This document shows positions 2-25,815 of a stretch of DNA of 64,000 nt, in pieces. A model generated the notes under the pieces. The model saw only the letters and a program-made list of their open reading frames with translations, was not told the origin of the DNA and ran no database searches. The stretch comes from Burkholderiaceae bacterium (GTDB lineage Bacteria; Pseudomonadota; Gammaproteobacteria; Burkholderiales; Burkholderiaceae_E). How positions within the stretch are numbered: position 1 is the first letter of the stretch; every line of letters begins with the position of its first letter. The stretch lies in NCBI GenBank assembly GCA_024711155.1, contig JANJTK010000197.1, forward strand, positions 4,739 to 68,738. Direction: 5' to 3'. The translations under genes were made by a program, and so were the position numbers.

Positions 2-1513
2 GACCTGCTGCTGGCGATCGACTGGCAGAACATCAACCGCTTCGCCGACGAGATCCCGATGCGCCCCACCGGGGTGCTGGTCGGCGATTCCGACGAAGGC
101 GAGCCGCCGGCGGTGTTCCTGGCAGGCGGCGCGCGTTACTTCTCGGTGCCGCTGAAGAAGATCTCGAAAGCGGTCCCCGGCAGCTGGACCAACATGGTGG
201 CGCTCGGAGTCGCCGGCGCGCTTGCCGGGATTCCGGTCGAGGCGCTCGAGGAGGCGGTGCGCGCGTCGTGGAAGCGCGCGGAAACGGCGCTGCAGGCCAA
301 CCTGCAGGCACTGCACGCCGGCATCGAGGCGGCCGCCGGCATCGACGGCATGCCGCGCATCGCTGCCGGCCCGGCGCCGGCCGGCAAGCGCTGGCTGCTC
401 AGCGGCAACGAGGGCACCGGTTTCGGTGCGCTGCGCGGCGGCGTGCGCTTCGTCGCCGCTTATCCGATCACCCCGGCCACCGAGGTGCTCGAATGGATGG
501 CGCCGATGCTCAGCAAGGTCGGCGGCACATTGCTGCAGGCCGAGGACGAGCTGGCGTCGATCAACATGATCGTCGGCGCGTCGTACGGCGGCGTGCCGTC
601 GCTCACTGCGACGGCGGGGCCCGGACTCGCGCTCATGACCGAGGGCATCGGGCTCGCCGTCGGCGCCGAAGTGCCGGTCGTCGTCGTCGACGTCATGCGT
701 GGCGGCCCCTCGACCGGCATCCCCGCCAAGAGCGAACAGAGCGACCTGTCGTTCGCCGTGAGCGGCCTGCACGGCGACGCGCCGCGGCTGGTGGTCGCGC
801 CGACGTCGATCTCCGACTGCGTGGCCACCACGCAGTGGGCGGTCGAACTGGCCGAGACACTGCAGGCGCCCGCCATCGTGTTGTCGGATCAGTTCGTCGG
901 GCAGTCGCGCGCGATCGTCGATCGCCCCGCCGACCCCGGTTTCTCAGCGAAGCGGCTGGTGGCCGAGGCGAACGCGCCCGACTTCAAGCGCTACCGCAAC
1001 ACCGAATCCGGCGTTTCGCCGATGGCGGTCCCCGGCACGCCGGGCATCACCTACACGGCCGACGGCCTCGAGAAGAACGAGGCCGGCATCCCCAGCAGCC
1101 AGGCGCGCGACCACTACGCGCAGCTCGACAAGCGCGAGCGCAAGCTGCGGCTGCACGACTACGGCAAGTGGTGGGCCGACGTCGAGGGCGAAGGCGACTG
1201 CGCGGTCATCACCTTCGGGTCGGTGACCGACGTGGCGCGCGAGTCGATCGCGCGGCTCGCGGCGCAGGGCGTTGCGGTCAGGCTGGTCGCGCTGCGGCTG
1301 CTTGCGCCGGCGCAGCCCGAGAAGCTCGCCGAGGCGCTCGCGGGTGTCGCGCGAGTGCTCGTGGTCGAGCAGAACCACTCCGCGCAGCTGTTCCGCTACC
1401 TGCGCTCGATGTACGACCTGCCGGGCAAGCCGGCGAGCTTCCACCGACCCGGCCCGCTACCGATGCGCCCGGGCGAACTTGCGAAAGTGATCCTCGAATG
1501 GAAACAGCAATGA
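2..1513 (+). CDS. korA: 2-oxoacid:ferredoxin oxidoreductase, fused gamma/alpha subunit (KorA-like), 5' end cut by window edge
   Basis: The frame is open from nt 2 (DLLLAIDWQNINRFADEIP) into ORF 59..1513. OFOR gamma- then alpha-domain hallmarks are present (GNEGTGFGALRGGVRFVAAYPITPATE, LQAEDELASINMIVGASYGG, TATAGPGLALMTEG). The stop overlaps the next start (ATGA at 1510-1513). Confidence 0.85.
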   Translation, partial: DLLLAIDWQNINRFADEIPMRPTGVLVGDSDEGEPPAVFLAGGARYFSVPLKKISKAVPGSWTNMVALGVAGALAGIPVEALEEAVRASWKRAETALQANLQALHAGIEAAAGIDGMPRIAAGPAPAGKRWLLSGNEGTGFGALRGGVRFVAAYPITPATEVLEWMAPMLSKVGGTLLQAEDELASINMIVGASYGGVPSLTATAGPGLALMTEGIGLAVGAEVPVVVVDVMRGGPSTGIPAKSEQSDLSFAVSGLHGDAPRLVVAPTSISDCVATTQWAVELAETLQAPAIVLSDQFVGQSRAIVDRPADPGFSAKRLVAEANAPDFKRYRNTESGVSPMAVPGTPGITYTADGLEKNEAGIPSSQARDHYAQLDKRERKLRLHDYGKWWADVEGEGDCAVITFGSVTDVARESIARLAAQGVAVRLVALRLLAPAQPEKLAEALAGVARVLVVEQNHSAQLFRYLRSMYDLPGKPASFHRPGPLPMRPGELAKVILEWKQQ

Positions 1514-9221: not shown

Positions 9222-9225
9222 ACCA

Positions 9226-10134: not shown

Positions 10135-10951
10135 TCCGACCGCCGACGACGCCGGCGACAGATATCTCGTTCCCGCCCTGGAGCGCGGCCTGCGGCTGCT
10201 CGGCGAGTTCAGCCGCGACACCCGGAGCCTCAGCGCACCGGAACTCGGCCGCCGCCTGCGCCTGCCGCGTTCGACGACCTTTCGCCTGCTTGCAACGCTC
10301 GAGCGCCTGGGCTTCGTGGAACGCGCAGGCAACGACTACCGGCTCGGCATGGCCGTGCTCCGGCTCGGATTCGAATACCTCGCTTCGCTCGAATTGACGG
10401 AACTCGGGCAGCCATTGCTCGCGCACCTCTGCGACGAGATCCGCTATCCCTGCAACCTGGTGGTGCGTGACGGGCGATCCATTGTCTATGTCGCGAAAGT
10501 CACCCCGCCGATGCCGTTGTCGAGTTCGGTCCACGTGGGTACCCGGCTGCCCGCGCACGCCACGGTTCTGGGCCGCATCCTGCTCGGGGACATGAACCTG
10601 GACGAATTGCGCACCCTTTATCCCGAGGAGCGCCTGGAGGCGTTTTCAGGCAACACGCCGAACACCGTGCTCGATCTGTTCGAGCTGGTTCGCGCCGACC
10701 GCGAGCGCGGCTACGTGCTCGGCGAGGGTTTCTTCGAGGCGGGCATCTCGACCATCGCGGCGCCGGTGCGCGACCACACGGACCGCGTGGTGGCCGCGCT
10801 CGGCACCACGATCACGTCGGCGCGGATCGACCCGGCGCGCAGCCCGGATCTCGTGCGTGCGGTGCGTGCCTGCGCCGACGCGCTGTCGCAATTGCTCAAC
10901 CACCGTCCTGCAGCCGATCGGGCTGCGACGGCACCCCGGATCCGCTCATGA
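10127..10951 (+). CDS. IclR family transcriptional regulator
   Basis: ATG 10127 lies in ORF 10034..10951 and overlaps the hydrolase 3' end by 8 nt. There is a winged HTH (LSAPELGRRLRLPRSTTFRLLATLERLGFV) and an IclR effector domain (GTRLPAHATVLGRILL). Confidence 0.85.
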   Translation: MNDPTADDAGDRYLVPALERGLRLLGEFSRDTRSLSAPELGRRLRLPRSTTFRLLATLERLGFVERAGNDYRLGMAVLRLGFEYLASLELTELGQPLLAHLCDEIRYPCNLVVRDGRSIVYVAKVTPPMPLSSSVHVGTRLPAHATVLGRILLGDMNLDELRTLYPEERLEAFSGNTPNTVLDLFELVRADRERGYVLGEGFFEAGISTIAAPVRDHTDRVVAALGTTITSARIDPARSPDLVRAVRACADALSQLLNHRPAADRAATAPRIRS

Positions 10952-11760
10952 ATGCGCGACTGACCCGCTGCATCGATCTGCGCGAGCGCGTAGCCGTGGT
11001 GACCGGCGGTTCATCCGGCATCGGTCTGGCGACGGTTGAGCTGCTGCTGGCGGCCGGCGCCTCGGTCGCCCTGTGCGGCCGCGACGAAGACCGTCTGCGC
11101 AACGCCGAGGCGGTGCTGCGCCGCGAATTTTCCGGGGCACGGCTGTACGCGGCGAGTTGCGACGTGCTGAACGCCGAATCCGTGGCCCGCTTTGCGCGCG
11201 ACAGCGAAGCTGCCATCGGGCCGGCGTCGATCCTGGTCAACAACGCGGGTCAGGGCCGGCAGTCGACTTTCGCGGACACGACCGACAGCGCGTGGACCGA
11301 AGAACTGCACCTGAAGTTCTTCTCGGTCATCCATCCGACCCGCGCCTTCCTGCCCCAACTCGAGCGCCACCCGGAGGCGGCGATCGTCTGCGTCAATTCG
11401 TTGCTCGCTGCGCAGCCCGAGCCGCATATGGTGGCCACGTCGGCGGCGCGTGCCGGTGTCAGGAACCTCGTGCGCTCGCTTGCCACCGAACTCGCGCCCA
11501 GGGGCATCCGCGTCAACGGCATCCTGTTGGGGCTGGTCGAGTCCGGTCAGTGGCGCCGTCGCTTCGAAGCGCGCGAAGACCGCTCGACGAACTGGGCCGA
11601 GTGGAGCGCCCAGCTCGCGCAGCGCAAGAAGATCCCGCTTGGTCGCCTCGGCCGACCGGAAGAGGCGGCGCACGCAGTCGTCTACCTGGCCTCACCCTTG
11701 TCGTCGTACACGACGGGCAGCCACATCGACGTGTCCGGAGGTCTTTCCCACCATGCGTGA
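10948..11760 (+). CDS. SDR family protein with non-canonical active-site positions
   Basis: ORF 10948..11760 with an ATGA overlap onto the IclR stop. TGGSSGIG and NNAG are present. At the canonical spacing from Ser151, the YxxxK positions read Thr164 and Arg168 (ATSAARAG). Confidence 0.8.
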   Translation: MNARLTRCIDLRERVAVVTGGSSGIGLATVELLLAAGASVALCGRDEDRLRNAEAVLRREFSGARLYAASCDVLNAESVARFARDSEAAIGPASILVNNAGQGRQSTFADTTDSAWTEELHLKFFSVIHPTRAFLPQLERHPEAAIVCVNSLLAAQPEPHMVATSAARAGVRNLVRSLATELAPRGIRVNGILLGLVESGQWRRRFEAREDRSTNWAEWSAQLAQRKKIPLGRLGRPEEAAHAVVYLASPLSSYTTGSHIDVSGGLSHHA

Positions 11761-13456
11761 CACCGTCACCGTCGGCGCAGTCGTCTCGGCATTCCTCGAG
11801 CAGTGCGGCGTCGAGGCCGCCTTTGGCGTCATCTCGATCCACAACATGCCGATCCTGGACGCCTTCGCGCAGCGCGGCCGGATCCGCTTCGTGATGGCCC
11901 GGGGCGAGGCCGGCGCCGGCAACATGGCCGACGCGTTCGCGCGCTCGACCGCCCGTCTCGGCGTGTGCATCACGAGCACCGGTCCGGCCGCCGGCAACAT
12001 CGCGGGCAGCCTGGTGGAGGCCTGTACCGCGGGCACGCCGCTGCTGCACATCACCGGCCAGATCGAGACCCCGTACCTCGACAAGCGCCTTTCGTACATC
12101 CACGAGGCGCCGGACCAGCTGGCGATGCTCGATGCCGTGTCGAAGGCCGCGTTCCGTGTGCGCAGCGCCGAGACCGCGCTGTCGACACTCAAGCAGGCGG
12201 TGCAGGTCGCGATGACAGCGCCGACCGGGCCGGTGAGCGTGGAAATCCCGATCGATATCCAGCAGACGCTGATCCCGATGCCGCGGGATCTGGCGCCACT
12301 GCCGGTCGCCGTCCCGATGCCCGGCGCCGAGGCACTGGACGCACTCGCGCAACGCCTGAGCGCCACCCGGCGTCCGCTACTGTGGCTGGGCGGCGGCGCG
12401 CGGCATGCCGGTGCCGCGGTGAAACGCCTGAAGGCCCTCGGCTTCGGCATCGTGACGACCGTGCAAGGTCGCGGTATCGTCGCCGAGGACGATCCGGCCT
12501 CACTCGGCGCCTACAACCTCCACCAGCCGGTCGAGGCGTTCTATCAGCGCTGCGACGCCATGCTGGTGGTCGGTTCGCGCCTGCGCAGCAACGAGACTCT
12601 GAAGTACGAACTGAAACTGCCGCGCCCGCTGCTGCGGATCGACGCGGATGCAGCCCAGCAGGGACGATGCTATGCCGACGACGGCTTCGTCTGTGGCGAC
12701 GCAGCGCTGGTGCTGGCGGGCCTGGCCGAGCGACTCGAGGCGCACGGCTGGCGGGCCGACCCGGAATTGCTGCTCGATCTGCGCCGCACCCACGACGAGG
12801 CAGTGCGCACGCTGCACGACGGCCTGGGCCCCTATGCCGAACTGGTGCAGCAGTTGCAGAAGGCGGCCGGCCGCCGGTTCAACTGGGTGCGCGACGTCAC
12901 CGTCTCGAACAGCACCTGGGGCAACCGCGAACTGCGCATCTTCGAGGCCGACGCGGGGATCCACGCCACCGGCGGAGGCATTGGCCAGGGCATGCCGATG
13001 GCGATCGGCGCGGCGGTGGGCGCACAGGTCACAGCGTCGGGCCGCAAGACGTTGTGCCTGGCCGGTGACGGCGGCTTCGTCCTGAACCTGGGCGAACTCG
13101 CGACGCTGGTTCAGGAAGCGTGCGACTGCCTGATCGTGCTGATGAACGACCGGGGCTACGGCGTGATCAGGAACATCCAGGACGCGCAATACGGCCGCCG
13201 CCGCTGCTACGTGGATCTGCACACGCCCGACTACGCCCAGTTGTGCGCCTCGCTGGCGCTGCCGCACGATCGGGTCGGCAACCTGGCCGAGTTGCCCGCG
13301 AAGCTCGACGCTGCGCTCGGCAGCAGCGGCCCGTTCGTGCTGGAGATCGACATGTTGTCGATCGGCAGCTTCAAGACCGCGTTCGCGGGCCCGCCGGTGA
13401 ACCGGACCGATCAGGTGCCGCCGCCGGATACCGCGGTCGGGTCGAGCGCTGCCTGA
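11753..13456 (+). CDS. thiamine diphosphate-dependent enzyme (acetolactate synthase/benzoylformate decarboxylase superfamily)
   Basis: ATG 11753 lies in ORF 11450..13456 and overlaps the SDR 3' end by 8 nt. The N-terminal Pyr domain has GEAGAGNMADAFAR. The ThDP motif is GDGGFVLNLGELATLVQEACDCLIVLMND. Confidence 0.85.
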   Translation: MRDTVTVGAVVSAFLEQCGVEAAFGVISIHNMPILDAFAQRGRIRFVMARGEAGAGNMADAFARSTARLGVCITSTGPAAGNIAGSLVEACTAGTPLLHITGQIETPYLDKRLSYIHEAPDQLAMLDAVSKAAFRVRSAETALSTLKQAVQVAMTAPTGPVSVEIPIDIQQTLIPMPRDLAPLPVAVPMPGAEALDALAQRLSATRRPLLWLGGGARHAGAAVKRLKALGFGIVTTVQGRGIVAEDDPASLGAYNLHQPVEAFYQRCDAMLVVGSRLRSNETLKYELKLPRPLLRIDADAAQQGRCYADDGFVCGDAALVLAGLAERLEAHGWRADPELLLDLRRTHDEAVRTLHDGLGPYAELVQQLQKAAGRRFNWVRDVTVSNSTWGNRELRIFEADAGIHATGGGIGQGMPMAIGAAVGAQVTASGRKTLCLAGDGGFVLNLGELATLVQEACDCLIVLMNDRGYGVIRNIQDAQYGRRRCYVDLHTPDYAQLCASLALPHDRVGNLAELPAKLDAALGSSGPFVLEIDMLSIGSFKTAFAGPPVNRTDQVPPPDTAVGSSAA

Positions 13457-13469
13457 GGACGCCATCGTC

Positions 13470-14258
13470 ATGCGTATCGCGCTGGTCGGTTGCGGTGCCA
13501 TCGGGTCCGCGCTGCTGGAGCTGGTGAAGGACGATCCCGGCTTCGTGGTCGCGGCCATCGTCATGCGGGCCAGCACGGCCAGAGCGGTGAGCGGGCGTCT
13601 TGCGAGCGGTGCGCAGGTCGTGACGACGGTGCCGCTGCAGGGCATCGACCTCGTCGTCGAGGCCGCGGGCCATGCCGCCATCGAGCAGCACGTGTTGCCG
13701 GCCCTGCAACGGGGGGTGCCGTGCATCGTGGCTTCGGTGGGGGCGCTTTCCGCCCGGGGGCTGCCGGAGCGGCTCGAAGCCGCCGCGCGCGCAGGCGGCA
13801 CCCGACTGCAACTGATTGCCGGCGCCATCGGCGCGATCGACGCGCTGGCGGCCGCCCGCATCGGCGGATTGGAGAAGGTGCGCTACACCGGCCGCAAGCC
13901 GCCGCGCGCCTGGACTGGCACCGCCGCCGAGCGGGGCCGCAACCTGGGTGCACTTCTTGCGGAGACGGTGATATTCGAGGGGTCGGCCCGCGAAGCCGCC
14001 ACCCTCTATCCGAAGAACGCCAACGTGGCCGCGACGGTGTCGCTCGCCGGCCTGGGCCTCGACCGCACCATGGTGCGCTTGATCGCCGATCCGTCCCTGG
14101 ACGAAAACGTGCACGAAGTCGAAGCCGCGGGTGCCTTCGGAAGCTTCGCGCTGACCATGCGCAACAAGCCTCTGCCGGCGAATCCCGGGACTTCGGCGCT
14201 GACCGTCTACAGCGCGGTGCGCGCACTGCGCAATCGTGTCTCGGCGCTGTACATCTGA
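13470..14258 (+). CDS. aspartate dehydrogenase (NadX) family protein
   Basis: ORF 13470..14258. Rossmann motif IALVGCGAIGS is followed by YPKNANVAATVSLAGLG and NPGTSALTVYS, typical of the AspDH family. Confidence 0.78.
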   Translation: MRIALVGCGAIGSALLELVKDDPGFVVAAIVMRASTARAVSGRLASGAQVVTTVPLQGIDLVVEAAGHAAIEQHVLPALQRGVPCIVASVGALSARGLPERLEAAARAGGTRLQLIAGAIGAIDALAAARIGGLEKVRYTGRKPPRAWTGTAAERGRNLGALLAETVIFEGSAREAATLYPKNANVAATVSLAGLGLDRTMVRLIADPSLDENVHEVEAAGAFGSFALTMRNKPLPANPGTSALTVYSAVRALRNRVSALYI

Positions 14259-14266
14259 GTCCCGAC

Positions 14267-15745
14267 ATGAAGGCCCGCCTCGAACTTCTCCCGATCGACG
14301 TGGCAGGCGAATGGCGCCCGGGTAACGGCGAAGAATACGAAAGCCTCTACCCCGCCACCGGGGAACCCGTTGCCCGCCTGCGAGCGGCCAGTCCGGGCGA
14401 CGTGGACGAAGCCATCAACCGCGCCGACCGCACCTTCCGCAACAGCGGCTGGGCACAGATGCTGCCGCACGCGCGTGCCGCGGTGCTGCACCGCGTCGCG
14501 GCCCTGATCCGCGAGCGCTCCGAAGACCTCGCGCAGCGGCAGCGTCTGGACAACGGCAAGCCGATCAGCGAGACCCGGGCGCTGGTGGCGAGCGCCGCCG
14601 GCACGTTCCAGTATTTTGCCGCTGCGCTCGAGACGCTGGAGGAGGCCATCACCCCATCGCGCGGCGCCTGGGTGACGATGAGCGTGCACGAACCGATGGG
14701 CGTCGTGGCCGCGATCACGCCGTGGAACTCGCCGATCGCCAGCGAGGCGCAGAAGCTCGCGCCGGCGCGCGCAGCCGGCAACGCGGTGGTCGTGAAGCCG
14801 GCCGAGGTCACGCCGCTCATGGCGCTGGAGCTGGCGAGTATCTGCGAGGAAGCCGGTGTGCCCAGGGGCATGGTGAGCGTGCTGCCCGGCAAGGGCTCGG
14901 TCATCGGCGACGTCATCACCCGGCATCCGCTGGTCAGGCGAGTTTCGTTCACCGGCGGCACGGCCACCGGCAAGCACATCGCCCGCATTGCGGCCGACAA
15001 GATGATGCCGGTGTCGCTGGAGCTGGGCGGAAAGTCGCCCACCATGGTGCTCGAGGACGCGGATCTCGACCACGCGCTGGCCGGTGTGCTCTACGGCATC
15101 TTCAGCAGCTCGGGCGAATCGTGCATCGCAGGCTCGCGCCTGTTCGTCGCGCGTCGCATCTACGACGAGTTCGTCACCCGCCTGGCCCGGGCCGCCGGGT
15201 CGCTGCGCGTGGGCGATCCGTCCAGCGAGCGCACGCAAATGGGTCCGCTGATCACTGCCGGGCACCGCGAGAGCATCGAGCGCTACGTGGCGCTGGGCGT
15301 GAGCGAGGGCGGCCGCATCCGCAGCGGCGGCGTACGCCCGAGCGGCGCCGGCTTCGACCGGGGCTACTTCTACACCCCGACCATCCTCGAGGGCCTGGCC
15401 AACACGGCACGCGTCAGCCGGGAGGAGATCTTCGGCCCGGTGCTGGTAGCGATGCCCTTCGACACCGAGGACGACCTCATCGCCCAAGCCAACGACAGCG
15501 TCTACGCGCTTGCCGCCGGCGTGTGGAGCCGCGACTTCAAGCGCGCCTGGGCGCTCGGCCGCGCGGTGCAGGCCGGCACCGTGTGGATCAATACCTACAA
15601 GCAGTTCTCCGTTTCCACCCCATTCGGCGGCTGGCGCGACTCCGGCCTCGGCCGCGAGAAGGGCCGCGAAGGCATCTTCCAGTACATGCAGCAGAAGAGC
15701 CTGTACTGGGGCATCAACGAGGAGCCGCTCGCATGGGCGCGCTGA
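14267..15745 (+). CDS. NAD(P)-dependent aldehyde dehydrogenase
   Basis: ATG 14267 lies in ORF 13490..15745. Motifs ITPWNSP, ELGGKSP (catalytic Glu), GESCIAGSR (catalytic Cys) and EEIFGPV are present. Confidence 0.9.
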   Translation: MKARLELLPIDVAGEWRPGNGEEYESLYPATGEPVARLRAASPGDVDEAINRADRTFRNSGWAQMLPHARAAVLHRVAALIRERSEDLAQRQRLDNGKPISETRALVASAAGTFQYFAAALETLEEAITPSRGAWVTMSVHEPMGVVAAITPWNSPIASEAQKLAPARAAGNAVVVKPAEVTPLMALELASICEEAGVPRGMVSVLPGKGSVIGDVITRHPLVRRVSFTGGTATGKHIARIAADKMMPVSLELGGKSPTMVLEDADLDHALAGVLYGIFSSSGESCIAGSRLFVARRIYDEFVTRLARAAGSLRVGDPSSERTQMGPLITAGHRESIERYVALGVSEGGRIRSGGVRPSGAGFDRGYFYTPTILEGLANTARVSREEIFGPVLVAMPFDTEDDLIAQANDSVYALAAGVWSRDFKRAWALGRAVQAGTVWINTYKQFSVSTPFGGWRDSGLGREKGREGIFQYMQQKSLYWGINEEPLAWAR

Positions 15746-15800
15746 CGCCGGTGACCGCCGGCCCGGACTACCCGATCGAGCCCGCAAGGATGAGCGCGCC

Positions 15801-16772
15801 ATGAGCATTCTCGGCATCGACCAGATCACCTACGGCGCGGACGAACTCGCCACCAGCCGTCGGTTCTTTATCGACTGGGGCCTGACGCTGGCGCAGGAGC
15901 GCGCCGACGAACTCGTCTTCGAATGCCTCAACGGCTGCCGCGTGGTCGTGGCCGCGTCGACGAAAGCCGACCTGCCGCCACCAATCGAGAGCGGCCCGAC
16001 ACTGCGCGAGGTCGTCTGGGGCGTCGAGAGCGAACAGGACCTTCAACGGTACGCCGACGCGATCCGGGGCAATCCGGATTTCGTCGACGCCGTGGTCGAT
16101 GGTGCCCGGCGCATCGGCTGCACCGATCCGAATGGTCTTGCGGTGCGCCTGCAAGTCAGTCGCAAGCGCCCGGTCGAGGTGGCGTGTGCGGCCATGAACA
16201 CCTGGTCTGCCAGGCCGCGCGTCGACCGGCGCAGCCCGGTCTACGAGCGCGCCACACCCATCGAAGTGGGCCATGTGGTGTTTTTCGTTGTTGACATCGA
16301 GGCGACGGAACGCTTCTACGCCAGCCGGCTCGGCTTCGTCGCGTCCGACCGTTACCCGGGCCGCGGCGCGTTCATGCGCTGCGCACCCTCAGGCGGCCAC
16401 CACGACCTGTTCCTGCTGCAGCTGCCGTCGGGGCAGCGTGGACTCAACCACGTAGCGTTCACAGTGCGCGACATCCACGAGGTGTTCGGCGGCGGCCTGC
16501 ACGTTTCGCGCTGCGGCTGGGAGACCCAACTCGGGCCGGGGCGGCACCCGATCTCGTCGGCCTACTTCTGGTACTTCAGGAACCCGGCCGGTGGCCTGAT
16601 CGAGTACTACGCCGACGAGGACGAGCTCACCGGCAACTGGCAGGCGCGCGACTTCGAACCTGGGCCCACGGTTTTCGCCGAATGGGCTATCGACGGCGGC
16701 ATCGACGGTCACACACGTCGCCAGAGGGACGTCACTCCCCCCGGCGGCAGGTTCCTCACTGAGAAGACCTGA
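15801..16772 (+). CDS. two-domain VOC family protein, possible ring-cleavage dioxygenase
   Basis: ATG 15801 lies in ORF 15510..16772. The 323-aa product has two VOC repeats (GIDQITYGADELATSRRFFIDWGL, and VGHVVFFVVDIEATERFYASRLGF ... LNHVAFTV). Substrate is unknown. Confidence 0.65.
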   Translation: MSILGIDQITYGADELATSRRFFIDWGLTLAQERADELVFECLNGCRVVVAASTKADLPPPIESGPTLREVVWGVESEQDLQRYADAIRGNPDFVDAVVDGARRIGCTDPNGLAVRLQVSRKRPVEVACAAMNTWSARPRVDRRSPVYERATPIEVGHVVFFVVDIEATERFYASRLGFVASDRYPGRGAFMRCAPSGGHHDLFLLQLPSGQRGLNHVAFTVRDIHEVFGGGLHVSRCGWETQLGPGRHPISSAYFWYFRNPAGGLIEYYADEDELTGNWQARDFEPGPTVFAEWAIDGGIDGHTRRQRDVTPPGGRFLTEKT

Positions 16773-16866
16773 TGGCTGACCGGCCCACGACCTCGAGCCG
16801 CGGCGACACCCGCGCGCGTAACAGGGCGAGGCCTCCCACCGTTCTCTGCGCTCGAAAGGAGGCGAC

Positions 16867-18006
16867 ATGAACATCGGCATCGCAGGCGCTGGCATCGGCG
16901 GCCTGGCCGCGGCGATCGCGCTGCGCAACATGGGGCACGAAGTGGTGCTGTTCGAACAGGCGCCGCGCTTTTCGCGCGTCGGCGCCGACATCAATCTCAC
17001 GCCGAACGCGGTCCGGGCGCTCGACGGCCTGGGTGTCGGCGACGCCCTGCGTGAGACCGCAGCGCGACCCACCCACCGCATCAGCCGAACCTGGGACACC
17101 GGCGAAGAGACCTCGCGTCTCGAAATGGCCGATGCGGCGCAGGCCCGGTATGGTGCACCGCAATTGACCCTGCACCGCGCCGACCTGATGGGCGCGCTCG
17201 AGGCGGCGGTGCCGGCCGGGATCGTTCGCTTCGGCAAGCGCATCGCCGGTGTCGAGCGCACGCCCGACGGCTCGAGCACGTTGAAGTTTGCCGATGGCAC
17301 CAGCGAAACGGTCTACCTGCTGGTCGGCGCGGACGGCATTCACTCGGTGGTTCGAGAAGCGATGTTCGGCCCGGAGAGCCCGAGGTTCACCGGCGTCGTC
17401 GCGTACCGGGCGGTGGTGCCGGCCAGCCGCCTGCAGGGCGTCTCGAACCTCGGCGCGTTCACGAAGTGGTGGGGACCGGACCCGGCGATCCAGATCGTGA
17501 CGTTTCCGCTGAATCGCGGACGGGACATCTTCATCTTCGCCACCGAGCCGCAGCACAGCTGGCGTCACGAATCGTGGACGATGCCCGGCGATGTGAAGGA
17601 ACTGCGCGCCTCCTACGCGAATTTTCATCCCGAGGCGCGCGCGTTGCTCGATGCCTGCGACGAGGTCCTGAAGTCGGCGTTGTACGTACGTGATCCGCTG
17701 CCGGTCTGGTCCGTCGGTCGCCAGACCCTGCTTGGTGACGCCTGCCATCCGATGACGCCGTTCATGGCGCAGGGCGCCGGCATGGCAATCGAGGACGCGA
17801 TCGTGCTGGCGCGCTGCCTGAACGACGATTCGCTGCCCGATCCCGCTGCACGGCTGGTCCGCTACCAGCAGTTGCGCCTGCCGCGCACGAGCCGGGTCCA
17901 GATCGGGTCGCGCGGCAACGAGTGGCTCAAGGAGGGCGGCAACGCGGATTGGGTTTACGGCTACGACGCCTGGGCGATTCCGCTGACGCCCGAGCCAGCC
18001 GGATGA
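16867..18006 (+). CDS. group A FAD-dependent monooxygenase (salicylate hydroxylase / 6-hydroxynicotinate 3-monooxygenase-like)
   Basis: ORF 16867..18006. Motifs IGIAGAGIGGLAAA (GxGxxG), GADGIHSVVR, LLGDACHPMTPFMAQGAGMAIEDA and a C-terminal WVYGYD are present. Confidence 0.85.
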   Translation: MNIGIAGAGIGGLAAAIALRNMGHEVVLFEQAPRFSRVGADINLTPNAVRALDGLGVGDALRETAARPTHRISRTWDTGEETSRLEMADAAQARYGAPQLTLHRADLMGALEAAVPAGIVRFGKRIAGVERTPDGSSTLKFADGTSETVYLLVGADGIHSVVREAMFGPESPRFTGVVAYRAVVPASRLQGVSNLGAFTKWWGPDPAIQIVTFPLNRGRDIFIFATEPQHSWRHESWTMPGDVKELRASYANFHPEARALLDACDEVLKSALYVRDPLPVWSVGRQTLLGDACHPMTPFMAQGAGMAIEDAIVLARCLNDDSLPDPAARLVRYQQLRLPRTSRVQIGSRGNEWLKEGGNADWVYGYDAWAIPLTPEPAG

Positions 18007-18127
18007 CGCAGATGCCAGCCGTTGCCGGCCCGGCCGCGGTCGTCGTGAGCCGAGACCGCCGGTGGCGGCGCAGTTCGCGATCCGGGTCGTTGACGTCCGC
18101 AGGGCTACGCTGTACGATTGCCATAAA

Positions 18128-18152
18128 TGAACAGCGTGTTCATTTATGAACA
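18128..18152 (+). promoter_or_regulatory. candidate operator: TGAACA-N3-TGTTCA-N4-TGAACA (inside the 11-3-11 palindrome ATAAATGAACA gcg TGTTCATTTAT, 18123-18147)
   Basis: Read directly from an AT-rich island in GC-rich DNA. It ends 44 nt upstream of the ATG of the molybdenum-enzyme large subunit. The same architecture recurs at 25791-25815 on the minus strand. Confidence 0.55.
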
Positions 18153-18196
18153 TCGCACCGGACGCCGACGACGCTCACCGACGGAGACCTGCTCGC

Positions 18197-20494
18197 ATGA
18201 CGCAGTCCAACGAATACGCGGTGATCGGAAAACCGACCCCGAAGAAGGAAGCGCAGGCAAAGGTCACCGGCGGCGCGCGCTTCGCCACCGACGTCTACCT
18301 GCGCGACATGCTGTGGGCCCGGGTCCTGCGCAGCCCCCTGCCCCACGCCCGCATCGTCTCCATCGACACCACGAAGGCGAAGCGCCTGCCCGGGGTGATG
18401 GCGGTGCTCACTGCGGACGACGTGCCGGAGGCGCGCTACGGCGCGCTGGTGCTCGACATGGGGATGTTCGCGCGCGGCAAGGTCAGGTACGTCGGTGAGG
18501 CCATCGCCGCGGTCGCTGCCGTCGACGAGGAAACCGCGGCGCGGGCGGTCCGCTTGATCGAGGTCGAATACGAGGAACTCCCGGCCGTGTTCGACCCGCT
18601 CGAGGCGATGCGCCCGGACGCGCCGCTCGTTCACGAGAACCTGCCGGGCTACAAGACACTCTTCGACCGCACCCGGCGCGCGATGACCGGCAACGTCAAC
18701 TACCAGGCCGACATCGAGTCGGGGAACGTCGACGAGGGCTTCGCGCAGTCCGACTTCGTCTACGAGGACACCTACGAGGTCCAGAAGCAGCATCCGTCCT
18801 ACATGGAACCGAACTCCACGGTCGCGCACCTGGACGAGGACGGCCGGCTCATCGTCTACAACACCACTCAGCGGCCTCACATCAACCAGGCGATCCTCTC
18901 GTCGCTGCTGGGGATCCCGATCTCGCGCATCCGCGTCATCCCTTGCCACGTCGGCGGCGGATTCGGCGGGAAGAACCGGACCCTGTCCGAACCAACGGCG
19001 GCCGCGCTCGCGTTGAAGACGAAGCGCCCGGTGCGCCTCACCTTCTCGCACGAGGAGGAGTTCACGTCGGCGACCACCCGGCACTCCGCGATCATCCGGA
19101 TGAAGACGGGGGTCAGGAAGGACGGCACCCTCGTCGCCACGCAGGTCAGCCTGTACTACGAATGCGGCGCCTACGCGCCGACCCCGAACGCGGTGTGGCT
19201 CGGCGCGATCTCGTCCTCCGGACCGTACCGGATTCCGAACGCCAGGACCGAGGCGTTCTCGGTGTACACGAACAAGATGATGGGTGGCGCCTTTCGCGGA
19301 TACGGCGCGCCGCAGTCGAATTTCGCGCGCGAATCGCAGATGGACCGGATCGCCCGCGACCTGAACATCGATCCGATCGAGCTGCGGCTGAAGAACTGCC
19401 TGGTCCCGGGCGACTCGCTGCACACCGGCCAGCCGCTGCACAGCGTGCGCATCAAGGAGGCGCTGCTCAGGGCGCGGGACATGGCGCAGTGGAACACGCG
19501 CAGGCACGACGGCAACCGCGCGCTCGGCGTCGCCTGCGGCATCTTCGCCTGCGGGGGCTTCGCGACCTCGGCCGTCGTCAAGCTGCACATGGACGGCACC
19601 GCGTTCGTCGCGACCGGCGCGATGGACATGGGCCAGGGCTTGCGCACCGTGATGGCGCAGATTGCCGCCGAGGAACTCGGCATGTCCGCCGACGACGTGA
19701 CGGTGGCGATCGGCGACACCGACCTGACGCCCTTCGACGTGGGAATCTTCGGCGACCGGGGAACGCACACCACCGGGTTGGCGGTCCAGATGGCTGCCGC
19801 CGACGCCAGGCAGCAACTGGTGGCCGCGGCCGCCGATGCGATGGGCGCGAAGGCCACCAACCTGGAGTTGCGGGACCGCACAGTGATCGATCGAAGCACT
19901 CCCGGGAAGATGCTCCATTTCCGCGACGTCCTGGGAGGCGGCCAGTACAAGAAGGGCGGACCGATCATCGGGAAGGCGTCGATCAACCCGTCCGACACGC
20001 CGTTCGATCCGAAGATCGTCCAGGGCGCGGCCTCGAGGATGTTCTCGACCTACACCTTCGCCGTGCACATCGCGGAGGTCGAGGTGGAGCGCGCGACGGG
20101 GATCACGCGCGTGCCGAAGGTCTACGCGGTTCACGACTGCGGCACCGTCATCAACCCCGCGGGTCTCGAGGGGCAGATCATCGGCGGCCTGGCCACCGGT
20201 CTCGGATACGCGCTGTACGAGGAGGTCCTGATCCAGAACGGCCAGGTCCAGAACCCGAGCTTTCTCGAATGCCGTCCGCCCACTGCCGTCGACATGCCCG
20301 CGATCGAGTGGGACGTGGTCGAGGAATTCGATCGCAAGGGGCCCTTCGGCGCCAAGGGCGTCGGAAACGTCTCGGTCATCAACATGGCGCCGGCCATCGC
20401 GAACGCGGTAGAGACGATCACCGGCGTCCGCGTGAAGTCGCTCCCGATCACCGCCGCGAAGATCGTCGGCGGCGCGACGGCCGAGGAGCAATGA
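18197..20494 (+). CDS. xanthine-oxidase-family molybdopterin (large) subunit, set 1 (4-hydroxybenzoyl-CoA reductase alpha-like)
   Basis: ATG 18197 lies in ORF 18146..20494 (765 aa). Motifs GKVRYVGEAIAAVAA, HVGGGFGGK, GGAFRGYGAPQ, AMDMGQG and GPFGAKGVGN are present. Confidence 0.85.
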   Translation: MTQSNEYAVIGKPTPKKEAQAKVTGGARFATDVYLRDMLWARVLRSPLPHARIVSIDTTKAKRLPGVMAVLTADDVPEARYGALVLDMGMFARGKVRYVGEAIAAVAAVDEETAARAVRLIEVEYEELPAVFDPLEAMRPDAPLVHENLPGYKTLFDRTRRAMTGNVNYQADIESGNVDEGFAQSDFVYEDTYEVQKQHPSYMEPNSTVAHLDEDGRLIVYNTTQRPHINQAILSSLLGIPISRIRVIPCHVGGGFGGKNRTLSEPTAAALALKTKRPVRLTFSHEEEFTSATTRHSAIIRMKTGVRKDGTLVATQVSLYYECGAYAPTPNAVWLGAISSSGPYRIPNARTEAFSVYTNKMMGGAFRGYGAPQSNFARESQMDRIARDLNIDPIELRLKNCLVPGDSLHTGQPLHSVRIKEALLRARDMAQWNTRRHDGNRALGVACGIFACGGFATSAVVKLHMDGTAFVATGAMDMGQGLRTVMAQIAAEELGMSADDVTVAIGDTDLTPFDVGIFGDRGTHTTGLAVQMAAADARQQLVAAAADAMGAKATNLELRDRTVIDRSTPGKMLHFRDVLGGGQYKKGGPIIGKASINPSDTPFDPKIVQGAASRMFSTYTFAVHIAEVEVERATGITRVPKVYAVHDCGTVINPAGLEGQIIGGLATGLGYALYEEVLIQNGQVQNPSFLECRPPTAVDMPAIEWDVVEEFDRKGPFGAKGVGNVSVINMAPAIANAVETITGVRVKSLPITAAKIVGGATAEEQ

Positions 20495-20495
20495 C

Positions 20496-21518
20496 ATGCA
20501 GGCCCTTCCGGAATTCGAATATTTCGAGCCCGCATCGCTGGAGCAGGCGGCGCAGTTGCTGCGCGACGTCGGCGAGCAGTGCATGGTGCTCGGCGGCGGG
20601 ACCGACCTCGTCCCGTCGATGCGGCAAGGCCTGTTCCGGCCGAAGTACCTGCTGTCGCTGCAGGCGATCGACGCGCTGCGCGACATCCGCTGGGACGATC
20701 GAACCGGACTGGACATCGGCGCACTCGCGACGCTGCGCAGCGTCGAGTCGCACCCCGACGTGCTGCGGCGCTTCCCGCTCGCCGCGCGTGGCGCTTTCGA
20801 GGTCGCGTCGCCGTCGCTCAAGCAAATGGCGACCGTCGGCGGCAACCTCTGCCTGGACACGCGCTGCTACTACTACAACCAGTCCGAGCAGTGGCGGGAG
20901 TGCAGCACCGCGTGCCTGAAGATGGGCGGCGAATTCTGCAAGGCGTCGCCGGGCGGGCGGGCGCGCAAGTGCTTCGCGGCGTTCTCGGGCGACCTGGCGA
21001 CGACGCTCGTCGCGCTCGACGCGCAAGTGACGCTGCTGTCGGGGCGAGGCGAGCGGACGCTCGCGCTGCGCGACTTCTACACCGGCGACGGCGCGAAGCC
21101 CAACGTCAGGCAACCCGACGAGATCCTCACCCGCGTGCTGATTCCGGCTGCCAGCAGCGGCCGCATCGGCTCGTACCGGAAGTACCGCATCCGCGGTTCG
21201 ATCGACTACCCGATTGCCAGTGTCGCGTTGACGGCGCGGCCGACGGCGAACCCGGACGTGTTCGAGGATCCGCGCCTCGTCGTCAGCGCCGTGACGACGC
21301 GGCCTGTGGTCGTCAAGGGCGTCGAGGAGCTCGTGGCCGGGAAGCCGCTGGACGAGGCGCTGATCGAGGCAGCCGCGCAGCTCGCCCGCCGCGCCGCCAT
21401 TCCGGTGGCGAACACCGCGGGGGTGCGCACTCACCGCAAGCACGTCGTCCACGAGTTCGCGCGGGAAGCGTTCGCCGACCTCGTCCAGCAGGCGCGAAGA
21501 GCGCCGCTGCCATCCTGA
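20496..21518 (+). CDS. FAD-binding (medium) subunit, set 1, with Cys-rich insertion (putative extra [4Fe-4S] site)
   Basis: ORF 20496..21518 starts 1 nt after the large-subunit stop. It has a CoxM/XdhB-like fold (VLGGGTDLV, VGGNL). A roughly 37-aa insert reads CLDTRCYYYNQSEQWRECSTACLKMGGEFCKASPGGRARKC. Confidence 0.85.
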   Translation: MQALPEFEYFEPASLEQAAQLLRDVGEQCMVLGGGTDLVPSMRQGLFRPKYLLSLQAIDALRDIRWDDRTGLDIGALATLRSVESHPDVLRRFPLAARGAFEVASPSLKQMATVGGNLCLDTRCYYYNQSEQWRECSTACLKMGGEFCKASPGGRARKCFAAFSGDLATTLVALDAQVTLLSGRGERTLALRDFYTGDGAKPNVRQPDEILTRVLIPAASSGRIGSYRKYRIRGSIDYPIASVALTARPTANPDVFEDPRLVVSAVTTRPVVVKGVEELVAGKPLDEALIEAAAQLARRAAIPVANTAGVRTHRKHVVHEFAREAFADLVQQARRAPLPS

Positions 21519-21532
21519 ACGGGGTCACGAAC

Positions 21533-22069
21533 ATGAAACAGGCGCTGACGCTGCAGATCAACGGCCGATCGCACGAGTTGCTCGTCGAGCCCCGCCGGAC
21601 GCTGCTCCAGGTGCTGCGCGAGGACCTCGCGCTGACGGGAACCAAGGAGGTCTGCCTGCTGGGATCCTGCGGCGCGTGCACCGTGCTCGTCGACGGCAAG
21701 CCGGCGCTCTCCTGCCTCGTGCTGGCAGTGTCGTGCCGCAACCGGCAGGTCACCACGATCGAGGGACTCGCGCGCGACGGCGAACTGCACCCGCTGCAGC
21801 AGGCGTTCATCGACAAGGGCGCAGTGCAGTGCGGCTACTGCACGCCCGGCATGATCATGGCCGGGAAGGCGCTGCTCGACGAGCACCCGGCACCGACCGC
21901 CGCGCAGGCGCGCCAGGCGATCGCGGGGAACCTGTGCCGCTGCACAGGATACGCGCAGATCGTCGACGCAATCGTGAGTGCAGGCGGCGCGTCGGGACCT
22001 TGCTGCGGCGGCGTGCCGGCGCAGCCCGCCCTTGCGGCCCCGTACCTGATGCCGGAGACCGGCGAGTAG
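21533..22069 (+). CDS. [2Fe-2S]-binding (small) subunit, set 1
   Basis: ATG 21533 lies in ORF 20579..22069. Cluster motifs [20 protein letters not shown] and CRCTGY are present. Confidence 0.88.
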
Positions 22070-22082
22070 GCGGTCCACCGAC

Positions 22083-23036
22083 ATGGACACCGCGTTCTCC
22101 GACGCGCCCGACATCAGGATCTCGGTACGCCAGGTCTTCGGATTCGACTCGGACCTTCAGGTTCCGGCGTTCAGCGAAGCGAGCGAGCACGTGCCCGATC
22201 TCGACGAAGCGTACTGCTTCGACCTCGAGACCACGATGGCGATCCTGGTCGCGTTCGCCCACAACCGTCGCCTGCTGATCCAGGGTCGCCACGGCAGCGG
22301 CAAGTCGTCGCACATCGAGCAGGTCGCAGCGCGCCTGAACTGGCCGACGGTGCGCGTCAACCTGGACGGCCAGATCACGCGCACCGACCTGATCGGCCGC
22401 GACGCCATCGTGTTGCGCGAAGGCAAGCAGGTCACGGAATTCCGTGAAGGCATCCTGCCGTGGGCCTTCCAGCATCCGGTCGCGCTCGTCTTCGACGAGT
22501 ACGACGCGGGCCGCCCGGACGTCATGTTCGCGATCCAGCGGGTGCTCGAACTCGAGGGCCGCCTGACCTTGCTCGACGGCAACCGCGTCCTGCGCCCCCA
22601 CCCCGGGTTCAGGCTCTTCTCGACGGCGAACACGGTCGGGCTCGGCGACGCCACGGGCCTGTACCACGGCACGCAGCTGCTGAACCACGCGCAACTCGAC
22701 CGCTGGAACCTGGTCGCACGACTCGACTACCTCAGGCCCGACGACGAGATCGGGATCGTCCTGGCGAAGACACGCGGATACGACGATGACGAAGGCCGCA
22801 AGGCCGTCGCGTCGATGGTCGCGATGGCGAACCTGACGCGTTCCGGTTTTGCCGCCGGGGACGTCTCCGCCGTGATGTCGCCGCGGACAGTCATCACCTG
22901 GGCCGAGAATGCGCGCCTCTTCGGCGACGTTCGACTGGCGTTCCGCCTGACCTACCTGAACCGCTGCGACGACTTCGAGCGACCGATCGTTGCCGAGTAC
23001 TACCAGCGCTGCTTCGACGACGACCTCGGCGCGTAG
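22083..23036 (+). CDS. cobS: CobS-like AAA+ (MoxR-class) ATPase
   Basis: ORF 22083..23036 starts 13 nt after the small-subunit stop. Walker A is [13 protein letters not shown] and Walker B is LVFDEYD. There is strong by-eye resemblance to aerobic cobaltochelatase CobS ([57 protein letters not shown]). Confidence 0.8.
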
Positions 23037-23061
23037 CGCAGCGACGCGCGAAGATCATCGA

Positions 23062-24948
23062 ATGTCCGAGTCCGATCCGGCGCACGATCCGCTCGCGCGA
23101 CTCTGCGCCGTGACCGCGGCGACGATGCGCGCGCTGGCGGGCCGCGCGGACATTCCGCTCCCGTTCGCCCCGGACCCCGTCGGCCCGGGGATCCCGGACG
23201 CCCGCACGGCAGAGCCGGACGCAGCTCTCGCCGGCGATGCCCTCGCCCGCTTTCGCGGCGACGCCGACGCAGTTGCGTTGCGCCTGCGCCTGCACGACCC
23301 CGCCCTTCACGCGCGCCTCGCGCCCGCCGGCGGCGACGCCCGCGCCGCCTTCGACGCCCTGGAGCAGTTGCGCGTCGAAGCGCTCGGCGCGATCCACATG
23401 CGTGGCGTGGCCGCGAACCTTCGCGCCGCCGCGCAGGCGCGATGGCATACGCGCTGGCTCGACGCCGCGCACGGTCGCGATACAGCGCACCGTGGCGACA
23501 CCGCACCCGTCGCCGACCTCCTGGCGCTGCTCGCACGCGAGCGGCTCACTGGCGACCGCTGCTGGCCGCGTGCGGCCGATGGCGTCATCGACCGCTGGCG
23601 CACCCGGCTCGATGCCAGCGTCGAGCGTCGACTCGATAGACTCGTCGACGCCGTCGCCGACCAGGACCGCTTCGGCGAGCAGGTGCGTCTCCTTCTTTCC
23701 GAGGCCGAGCTCGACGACGCATGCCCGCCGAAGATCGAGTCTTCCGGGGGAGCACCCGAACCCGACTGCGACCGTCCCGACGACACGCCTCGCGACGAGC
23801 GCGCGATCGACGCCGCCAGCGTGGAGCCCGACGCCGCGCCCACGCGTGCACTCGAGTCGAGTGCCCCGCTGGCCGGCCGCGACGAAGAGCACGGCACCGA
23901 GGCCGCCCCGCAGGGGCCGGCGCCCGCTGCCGTGCAATCGGCGCCGGCGGCGGCCTGCGCGCCGCCCTCTCGCTATCGGCCATTTACCACTGCGCACGAC
24001 GAGGTCGTCACGCCGGGCGACCTGCGCGATCGCGGCGAGTTGCTGCGGCTTCGCGCGCTTCTCGACGCCCTGATCGCGGCGAGCGGTCGCGCGACCTCCC
24101 GCGACGCCGCCCGCCTGCAGCGCCAGCTGCTCGCCAGCACCCCCCGGGGCTGGGACTTCGAGCTCGAGGCAGGCCTGCTCGACACCGCGCGCCTGGTGCG
24201 CACGATCGTTGCCCCCGACAACGCACGCATCTACAAGAGCGAGCGCGAGGAGCGCGTCCCCGAGACGACCGTCACGCTGCTGGTCGACAACTCGGGATCG
24301 ATGCGCGGGCGACCGATCGCGCTCGCAGCGATGACCGCCGACATCGTCGCGCGCACGCTCGAGCGCTGCGGCATCGGCACCGAGATCCTGGGCTTCACGA
24401 CCCGCGCATGGAAGGGTGGCCGTTCACGCAAGGACTGGGTCGCCCAGGGCAGGCCGCCGGCCCCGGGCCGTCTCACGGACCTGCGGCACGTCGTCTACAA
24501 GTCGGCCGGCACGCCGTGGCGGCGCGCCCGCGTCGGCCTTGCGCTGATGCTCGACGAGGGCCTGCTGAAGGAGAACGTCGACGGCGAGGCACTCCTCTGG
24601 GCGCACGCGCGGCTGCTCGCGCGCCCCGAGCGACGGCGGATCCTGATGGTGGTCTCCGACGGCGCCCCGCTGGACGACTCTACGACTTGTACGAACGCAC
24701 CCGACTACCTCGAACGGCACCTGAGAGAGGTCATCGCGTGGATCGAGCGCCTGTCCCTCGTCGAGTTGACGGCCATCGGCATCTGCCACGACGTCTCGCG
24801 CCATTACCGTCGGGCCCTGACCCTCGACGATGCGGAGCAGCTGGGCAGCGCGGTGATCCGGGAACTGGGTGCGCTCTTCTCGCCATCCCGGAGCTCGGGC
24901 AACCGGGGGTCGGAGCTGTCAGGCCGCCCTCGTCATGGACCCAGGTAG
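23062..24948 (+). CDS. cobT: CobT-like von Willebrand factor A (VWA) protein
   Basis: ATG 23062 lies in ORF 22990..24948 (628 aa). The C-terminal VWA domain has the MIDAS motif [14 protein letters not shown]. CobT-like blocks follow ([60 protein letters not shown]). Confidence 0.8.
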
Positions 24949-24970
24949 GCTCGACGCGCGCGATCGTCGT

Positions 24971-25765
24971 TCAGCTGTTGCCGCCCGAACTGCGGCGCAC
25001 CCGCACGAGTTGCGAGACGATCCCGACGGCAATCTCGGCGGGTGTGTTGTTGCCGACCTTCTCGCCGACGGGACAGACGATCCGGTCCACGAAGGCGGGG
25101 TCCAGCCCTTCCCGGGCCAGCTCGCGCCTGAGCGCCTGCCCCTTCGACTTGCTGCCGATGACCCCGAGATAGGGAAGCGGCAACGCGGCCGCGGCGATCG
25201 CCTTCAGCACCGGAACGTCGGTGGCGTGCCCCATCGTCATGACGAGCACCATCGATTGCGGGCGGACGCGCCGCACGCCCTCCTCGAACTCCGGCACCTG
25301 CACCGCTTCGAGCGCCTCCGCACGCGGCAGGCGGTCGAGCCAGTCAGCGCGGACGTCGATGCAGGTGACGCGGCAATCCAGTTCGACGAGGAAGCGGCAC
25401 AGCTTCTGCGCCACGTGCCCGGCGCCGAAGATGACGATGTCCCAGTCGAGATCGGGACGCTGCACTTCGAAGAAGACCGCGGCCTCGCCGGCACACGTCA
25501 TGCCCAGGTCCTTCATCAGATTGAACCGCGCGAAACGCGTACCCGCGCCGGCCTCGCCGGCAAGCATCTCCAGCGCGATCTCCCGGCATCGGCTCTCGAG
25601 CCGCCCGCCCCCGACCGTTCCGAAGAAGAGCCCGTCGCGGGTGAACAGCGCGCGCGCCCCCACGACCTGCGGAATGCTGCCGCGGGCATCGACGAGGGTG
25701 GCGACGCAAAACGCGGCTCGCGCGCTCAGCAGCGCCTCGATCTGCCTCAACAGGATCGCGTTCAA
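24971..25765 (-). CDS. xdhC: XdhC/CoxI family molybdenum-cofactor insertion chaperone
   Basis: ORF 24971..25765 with a TTG start and GGAGA 7 nt upstream. The N-domain reads ATLVDARGSIPQVVGARALF. The Rossmann-like C-domain reads IVIFGAGHVAQ. Confidence 0.8.
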   Translation of the reverse strand: MNAILLRQIEALLSARAAFCVATLVDARGSIPQVVGARALFTRDGLFFGTVGGGRLESRCREIALEMLAGEAGAGTRFARFNLMKDLGMTCAGEAAVFFEVQRPDLDWDIVIFGAGHVAQKLCRFLVELDCRVTCIDVRADWLDRLPRAEALEAVQVPEFEEGVRRVRPQSMVLVMTMGHATDVPVLKAIAAAALPLPYLGVIGSKSKGQALRRELAREGLDPAFVDRIVCPVGEKVGNNTPAEIAVGIVSQLVRVRRSSGGNS

Positions 25766-25790
25766 CCGGATCTCCGTGCCGCGGCCTCAG

Positions 25791-25815
25791 TGTTCAGACA
25801 TGAACATAATGTTCA
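25791..25815 (-). promoter_or_regulatory. candidate operator, second copy: minus strand reads TGAACA-N3-TGTTCA-N4-TGAACA
   Basis: The plus strand reads TGTTCA gaca TGAACA taa TGTTCA. It ends 25 nt upstream of the xdhC TTG start, in the same orientation relative to its gene as the site at 18128-18152. It includes the 8-1-8 palindrome ATGAACAT a ATGTTCAT (25800-25816). Confidence 0.55.

Follow-up and report, generated by a model that had tools for sequence, protein, structure and literature searches.

The DNA analysed here, a 64,000-nt stretch of a Burkholderiaceae genome (the window), carries the same arrangement of hexamers, TGAACA-N3-TGTTCA-N4-TGAACA, in front of a molybdenum (Mo)-hydroxylase operon and in front of xdhC. 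Are these two sites the operators of one regulator and, if so, which protein binds them and with what effect on transcription?

Two three-box sites in one genome

A first-pass annotation of the window had described both sites with an identical 6-3-6-4-6 layout, and the description proved correct letter for letter (Table 1). At each site the boxes alternate in direction (TGAACA >, TGTTCA <, TGAACA >), boxes 1 and 2 converging and boxes 2 and 3 diverging. The box centres are 9 and 10 bp apart at both sites, which places the boxes on one helix face. Boxes 1 and 2 of site 1 fall within a perfect 11-3-11 palindrome, ATAAATGAACA-GCG-TGTTCATTTAT (18123-18147), and 44 nt separate the end of the site from the ATG of the large-subunit gene (18197). 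Site 2 starts 63 nt past the stop codon (25879-25881) of an IclR-family gene, IclR1, and its end is 25 nt short of the xdhC TTG (25765). The xdhC gene is convergent with the Mo-hydroxylase operon (18197-24948).

Table 1. Positions of the predicted sites, promoters and neighbouring genes in the window.
Feature	Position	Strand	Details
Second IclR gene, IclR2	10127-10951		heads SDR / ThDP-enzyme / aspartate-dehydrogenase-like cassette
FAD monooxygenase	16867-18006	+	salicylate/3-hydroxybenzoate/6-hydroxynicotinate hydroxylase class
Predicted sigma-70-type promoter, Mo-hydroxylase operon	18090-18118	+	-35 TTGACG 18090-18095, 17-nt spacer, -10 TACGAT 18113-18118
Three-box operator site 1 (predicted)	18128-18152	+	TGAACAgcgTGTTCAtttaTGAACA
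Site 1 boxes	18128-18133; 18137-18142; 18147-18152	+	TGAACA; TGTTCA; TGAACA
Mo-hydroxylase large subunit	18197-20494	+	Pfam, NCBIfam
FAD subunit	20496-21518	+	Pfam, NCBIfam
2Fe-2S subunit	21515-22069	+	Pfam, NCBIfam
CobS-like AAA+ protein	22083-23036	+	Pfam, NCBIfam
CobT-like protein	about 23040-24948	+	Pfam, NCBIfam
xdhC (Moco-insertion chaperone)	24971-25765	-	downstream of site 2; Pfam XdhC_CoxI and XdhC_C
Three-box operator site 2 (predicted)	25791-25815	-	TGAACAttaTGTTCAtgtcTGAACA
Site 2 boxes	25815-25810; 25806-25801; 25796-25791	-	box 1; box 2; box 3
Predicted xdhC promoter	25846-25818	-	-35 TTGACG 25846-25841, 17-nt spacer, -10 TACTTT 25823-25818
IclR-family regulator, IclR1	25879-26712	-	Pfam HTH_IclR and IclR_C; start ATG 26712 or 26703
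coxG, then second Mo-hydroxylase set	from 26967	+	divergent

The pattern is rare. Its two exact matches in the window are also the only two in the whole assembly (2.95 Mb, 300 contigs, 71% GC, ~90% complete), which holds no third site at up to three mismatches. About 1e-6 sites per genome would be expected by chance (arithmetic from base composition), and 100 dinucleotide shuffles of the window gave no match, even at up to three mismatches. With one mismatch allowed, the pattern occurred in 2/101 Paraburkholderia genomes and in none of 60 relatives or 400 other genomes of the same order. This rarity in the assembly and in other genomes rules out a dispersed repeat. Spacers and flanks differ between the sites, which share boxes and spacing, so a simple duplication is ruled out as well. 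The claim that the pair does not arise by chance thus held up, and the genome-wide search that the first-pass annotation had proposed returned exactly two sites.

We found no other site in the iclR-coxG gap, upstream of the monooxygenase gene or in the ubiD-tetR gap (pairs at up to two mismatches, triples at up to five). A partial copy earlier noted at 46678-46693, in the ubiD-tetR gap, was read with the right letters but has 4/12 mismatches, a level of match reached at 73 places in the window; we rejected it as an operator and regard it as noise. No three-box site lies upstream of IclR1 in this genome, and the gene is probably expressed constitutively.

The LexA SOS (Cheo) box has the form GAAC-N4-GTTC. 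Its GAAC/GTTC half-sites are common to the window site, but the resemblance is superficial: the spacing here is GAAC-N5-GTTC, a third box is present, the genes downstream are not SOS genes, and the neighbour is an IclR gene. We therefore discarded this candidate.

The sites follow predicted promoters

A predicted promoter precedes each site (Table 1). The one before the Mo-hydroxylase operon came from a consensus scan (1 found versus 0.4 expected); the one before xdhC was read from the sequence and by regular expression and is below the threshold of that scan (8/12 matches). The two sites are oriented alike, with box 1 beside the -10 hexamer and box 3 on the side of the gene, and the gap from the predicted -10 to box 1 is 9 nt at site 1 and 2 nt at site 2.

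Three mud-metagenome runs labelled RNA-Seq yielded short contigs, 95-99% identical to the window, that cover 18.5-24.5 kb and hardly cover 15.8-18.3 kb or xdhC. These contigs are without usable 5' ends, and their coverage is weakly compatible with a promoter at ~18.1 kb. DNA nearly identical to window positions 15000-27500 (up to 100% of sampled words) is also present in sediment and aquaculture metagenomes.

The site accompanies IclR1 orthologues

When species-representative genomes were searched with IclR1, one relative was found, in Paraburkholderia sp. J63 (49% identity). About 1.2 kb before this iclR gene we read cTTGACG-17-TATTCT-tttta-TGAACAttaTGTTCAttttTGAACA, an exact site with an FAD monooxygenase gene next to it and iclR after that; the monooxygenase is 73% identical to that of the window (16867-18006). 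A second Paraburkholderia genome has the same site-monooxygenase-iclR module. Only one genome of the same genus (G030) encodes an IclR1 orthologue (70% identity), and there iclR is followed by TTGACT-18-TACCAT-tta-TGAACAcatAGTTCAtctaTGTGCA and then by xdhC (65% identity). The G030 site has three mismatches and a decayed third box, and keeps the layout of site 2.

Monooxygenase orthologues 61-72% identical to that of the window adjoin IclR genes on large plasmids or chromids of five organisms: Caballeronia sp. M1242, Cupriavidus campinensis, Cupriavidus sp. EM10, Vibrio nigripulchritudo and Nitratireductor sp. OM-1. A three-box site with 1-4 mismatches stands directly upstream of each, and Nitratireductor sp. 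OM-1 has three sites, before three operons. Two monooxygenase paralogues, one in Rhizobium beside a LysR gene (48% identity) and one in a nicotinate-type cluster of Paraburkholderia (43% identity), have no site at up to four mismatches. The site was thus present wherever IclR1 orthologues turned up by protein homology alone, and it accompanies them across alpha-, beta- and gammaproteobacteria.

Position is conserved along with presence. The orthologous sites are preceded by TTGACx-17/18-TAnnnT, their orientation and position are constant, and a start codon follows 9-76 nt past box 3. By a simple pattern search, TTG(A/C)nn-16..19-TAnnnT ends 1-9 nt before box 1 in 13/22 sites. The proposal that one regulator serves both the Mo-enzyme/CobST operon and xdhC gains support from this comparison, as does the reading of the site as an IclR-type operator: it goes with orthologues of the adjacent IclR, at the same place in the promoter.

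An exact-pattern scan of metagenome contigs gave at least 119 loci, most of them on low-GC contigs or in tandem repeats, with no IclR gene within the stretch examined. Among the matches listed, about 10 loci with homologues were used further. One (L072) encodes an IclR of 77% and an XdhC of 70% identity, with the site between both genes; another (L102) has an IclR of 71% identity beside the site, two (L058, L109) an IclR of ~40%, and two (L053, L094) a monooxygenase of 63-73%. The order IclR, site, xdhC is syntenic in L072 and L129.

At other metagenome loci the hexamers form longer tandem arrays (TGAACAcacTGTTCAtcccTGAACAcac...) with no IclR gene nearby. Five such loci come from one metagenome with a GC content of ~0.65 (L011, L017, L045, L050, L126), and L030, L060 and L083 look the same. 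These arrays are a repeat distinct from the operator.

The third box is the best conserved part

We measured box conservation on the nine sites found by protein homology only; metagenome loci were left out because the exact pattern had selected them. Matches to the window hexamers were 47/54 for box 1, 46/54 for box 2 and 52/54 for box 3, so that the third box is the best conserved part. In the same nine sites the first spacer carries ~0.3 bit per position and the second is merely T-rich. The refined consensus is tTtta-TGAAC(A/T)-N3-nGTTCA-TnTT-TGAACA.

These data bear on whether the inverted repeat might work as RNA, as a 5'-UTR hairpin acting through stability, attenuation or translation. 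Transcripts from the predicted promoters, if these are right, would include the palindrome, which at site 1 forms a 12-bp hairpin. However, the folding energies are ordinary (z = -1.7 and -0.9), and Rfam gave no match at E <= 1 in 17800-26100, the Moco riboswitch included. The most conserved element is the unpaired third box, and 5/11 sites lack the pair between box 1 position 6 and box 2 position 1 and show no compensating change. We give this explanation almost no credence.

A putative fourth box, 4 nt upstream, overlaps the -10 hexamer. It matches at a mean of 2.45/6 positions, versus ~1.5 at neighbouring offsets, and at site 2 a weak version, TGTACT (25825-25820), overlaps the -10; downstream of box 3 there is no additional box. 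Because the third box is the most conserved and the -10 occupies the fourth-box position, we tentatively suggest that the IclR clade with the (I/V)NR(V/T)T helix may bind as a tetramer, with three subunits on the boxes and the fourth parked non-specifically on the -10, although we regard this as somewhat doubtful. If true, the promoter would have a built-in occlusion geometry, and the clade would offer a test case for the 'alternative dimerisation' hypothesis of IclR proteins.

The adjacent IclR is the likely regulator

Two IclR proteins had been named as candidates in the first-pass annotation, the adjacent IclR1 and the distal IclR2. The comparison upheld the first and spoke against the second, whose recognition helix is different. 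That of IclR1 reads ...LDINRVTLARLL... and has the form (I/V)NR(V/T)T(L/V)xRL, and an IclR with such a helix is encoded at 12/14 site-bearing loci. The helix of IclR2 is LPRSTTFRLL, and IclR2 and its orthologues share (P/T)R(S/T)(T/S)....

Could the distal IclR or another paralogue bind the sites, the adjacency of IclR1 being a coincidence? In Cupriavidus and Caballeronia, these neighbourhoods do contain orthologues of the distal protein as well, and two site-bearing loci have only an IclR from outside clade A. Against this, seven of the 12 loci with the IclR1-type helix have no other IclR within the stretch examined, and at none of the site-bearing loci examined does a regulator of the IclR2 type stand alone with the site. 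The distal type, moreover, apparently has a GTTCC/GGAAC-type palindrome of its own upstream of its cassette (n = 2 sequences). Binding by a regulator other than IclR1 is therefore very improbable.

The helix signature is not an exclusive determinant, and other IclR paralogues may cross-recognise the site, since in Nitratireductor (L131) and at one metagenome locus (L124) the site is present and the only IclR has the helix TRSAAFRTVYTL. Either more than one type of helix confers TGAACA specificity, or these loci have another regulator beyond the stretch examined.

Taken together, co-occurrence, conservation and position point to IclR1 as the protein that binds and to repression as the outcome. 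We consider it very probable that both sites are operators of the adjacent IclR1, acting as a repressor over the transcription start.

The palindrome seen upstream of IclR2-type cassettes differs from the three-box site. In the window it reads cGTTCC-N6-GAAACA (spacer tctaat) at 8423-8440, upstream of a cupin gene, the first gene of the 8697-18006 cluster. The second of the two sequences, in Caballeronia (L130:5679-5696), is a perfect TGTTCC-gcataa-GGAACA in an intergenic region next to an operon that ends in an IclR2 orthologue (53% identity). IclR2 thus apparently has its own TGTTCC/GGAACA-type site.

Comparison with known IclR operators

Three-box IclR operators are established for PcaU and PobR of Acinetobacter baylyi and for HmgR of Pseudomonas putida, IclR-family tetramers are likewise established, and three-box motifs with alternating direction have been predicted for 32 IclR orthologous groups (Suvorova & Gelfand 2021, PMC8222616). 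PcaU needs the third repeat in order to bind (Popp et al. 2002, as cited in PMC8222616). The window sites have the features of this class: alternating boxes about one helical turn apart, and an adjacent IclR gene whose orthologues co-occur with the site. The resemblance to PcaU/PobR drawn in the first-pass annotation is apt, both being experimentally known three-box IclR operators (PMC8222616). With PcaU, PobR and HmgR the window system shares an IclR regulator of aromatic catabolism and a palindrome to which a half-site is added externally, at a distance of about one helical turn. The boxes themselves are different in sequence (GTTCGAT/ATCGAAC versus TGAACA/TGTTCA), and the palindrome is a diverging GTTC...GAAC pair in PcaU and a converging pair in the window. 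The sign may differ as well: PcaU and PobR are activators or dual regulators, whereas the position of the window sites suggests repression.

IclR proteins can activate or act dually, so the sign of regulation rests on position. IclR1 might therefore bind these operators as an activator or in a dual role, like PcaU/PobR. By sequence the closest curated subfamily is indeed PcaR/PcaU/PobR (TIGR02431), whose proteins activate or act dually and have three-box sites (PMC8222616). This best match reaches 129.6 bits for IclR1 and 133.4 for the Paraburkholderia orthologue, far under the cutoff of 284.75, and by that NCBI cutoff IclR1 is outside the subfamily. In all loci examined, moreover, the site lies next to the -10 on its downstream side, a position from which bound protein normally occludes polymerase, and the promoters have good -35 TTGACx hexamers, which are untypical of activator-dependent promoters. 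We judge activation or dual control unlikely and keep to repression by IclR1.

The published prediction nearest to our sites is that for the Reut_B3600 group, which comprises Reut_B3600, RALTA_B0586, H16_B0749 and Bcep18194_B0480 in the entry of Supplementary Table 1 (PMC8222616). According to the entry, a palindrome (ATGAACAT-N-TAGTTCAT) is predicted 27-50 nt before the start codon of the neighbouring gene. To judge from this entry, the palindromic core ATGAACA-N3-(T/A)GTTCAT is common to the group and the window. The Reut_B3600 HTH (...RRIDVNRVTVMRLLATLEHE...), so far as the group's available sequences go, is nearly identical to the orthologues of Paraburkholderia, C. campinensis and Cupriavidus sp. 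EM10, and these sequences share the (I/V)NR(V/T)T helix with IclR1. The Suvorova & Gelfand motif and the near-identical HTH indicate, within the limits of that entry, that the palindromic core of the operator had already been predicted for close relatives.

The same entry lists the 17-bp palindrome alone, under 'group 2' and seemingly not as a three-box site, whereas the window site has a third box 4 nt downstream, its best conserved part. IclR1 is 49-53% identical to the Reut_B3600-type proteins of Burkholderiaceae. Its predicted targets are the Mo-hydroxylase operon and xdhC; that of the Reut_B3600-type proteins is a monooxygenase gene. We found no mention of the group's locus tags in the main texts of the literature searched, and a full-text search for the hexamers together with IclR returned primer sequences only.

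Set against the generic three-box motifs (PMC8222616), one window pair resembles group 2 (TGRAACA-N1-2-TGTTYCA) and the overlapping pair resembles group 1 (TGTYCRY-W3-RYGRACA). The spacing of the window site is about one base off per pair (AACA-N3-TGTT versus N1-2, and TGT-10-ACA versus TGT-11-ACA), with the same total span. In the table entry, the authors filed the N3-spaced Reut_B3600 motif under group 2 despite its N1-2 consensus (PMC8222616).

A model for regulation by IclR1

We propose that IclR1, probably a tetramer like other IclR proteins, recognises the three GAAC/GTTC-type boxes. On each site it would cover the transcription start and the early transcribed region. Because the site spans the predicted start, bound protein would repress both promoters, and RNA polymerase would be blocked at those of the Mo-hydroxylase/CobS/CobT operon and of xdhC. 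IclR1 would then be released by an effector, for which the best candidate is the substrate or a hydroxylated intermediate of the local (hetero)aromatic-acid pathway; we infer this induction step by analogy with IclR regulators of aromatic catabolism. The regulon assembled in this way, with the Mo-hydroxylase genes, the CobS/CobT-like pair and XdhC, is a coherent set of an enzyme and its maturation factors.

In Paraburkholderia and Cupriavidus, iclR is inside the regulated operon and is autoregulated. The window monooxygenase gene, whose product is the 73% identical orthologue of the Paraburkholderia enzyme, lies 8 kb from IclR1 as the last gene of the IclR2-headed cluster, with no site in front. 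To judge by these gene orders, the module appears to have been rewired here from a monooxygenase gene to the Mo-hydroxylase/CobS-CobT/XdhC set. With this rewiring, the effector of IclR1 would reveal the substrate of the orphan enzyme.

Three-box IclR sites are already known, and the window pair is a well-supported but ordinary example of a bacterial switch. Slightly beyond the literature go the conserved third box for this IclR clade, the constant placement of the site against the -10 and the putative addition to the regulon of an orphan Mo-hydroxylase/CobST/XdhC set. The analysis extends a published in-silico palindrome to a three-box site and assigns a regulator-operator pair to an orphan catabolic island, in which an unusual xanthine-dehydrogenase-family enzyme is combined with a CobS/CobT-like pair and XdhC. 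It also provides a natural variant set for testing how IclR tetramers read three boxes, and the repressor-operator pair is compact enough for use as a biosensor part. Otherwise this is routine bacterial gene regulation.

Other genes at site-bearing loci

The window monooxygenase is 43% identical to that of the nicotinate-type cluster on a Paraburkholderia largidicola plasmid (L137). That cluster also encodes a maleate isomerase, an isochorismatase-family protein, a hydrolase, a Mo-oxidoreductase and a cytochrome c subunit. Such a likeness fits a decarboxylating hydroxylase whose substrate is a hydroxylated (hetero)aromatic acid.

In V. nigripulchritudo plasmid pVNTG1 (L132:5980-7061) and in Cupriavidus sp. 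EM10 (L138:5001-6061) the monooxygenase orthologues are unannotated and spread over 2-3 frames (tblastn). Frameshifts in pseudogenes, or errors in sequencing, are the probable cause; the operators before these genes are intact.

The SDR / ThDP-enzyme / aspartate-dehydrogenase-like / aldehyde-dehydrogenase cassette of the window (10127-16772) recurs by the monooxygenase-IclR module on the conjugative Vibrio plasmid pVNTG1 (L132:1-4714), and in C. campinensis an IclR2 orthologue (68% identity) is encoded 5 kb from that module. A single conserved and uncharacterised pathway seems to comprise both units under IclR control.

Sulfatase genes flank the site-bearing module in Paraburkholderia sp. J63 (L003:2130-3947 and 12152-13987) and in a low-GC metagenome family (L090:10875-12446). 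They may hint at aryl-sulfate-derived substrates, or be a coincidence.

A small 'recombinase-like HTH' protein (Pfam HTH_62) heads operons for Rieske/VanA-type oxygenases (L130:2612-3862; L131:1706-5692; L090:8766-10762). These operons also encode an SDR and a hydrolase in Nitratireductor and on the low-GC contigs, and instead RidA and a VanB-type reductase in Caballeronia. Those of Nitratireductor, and of a large low-GC contig family of marine or freshwater origin, begin directly behind a three-box site.
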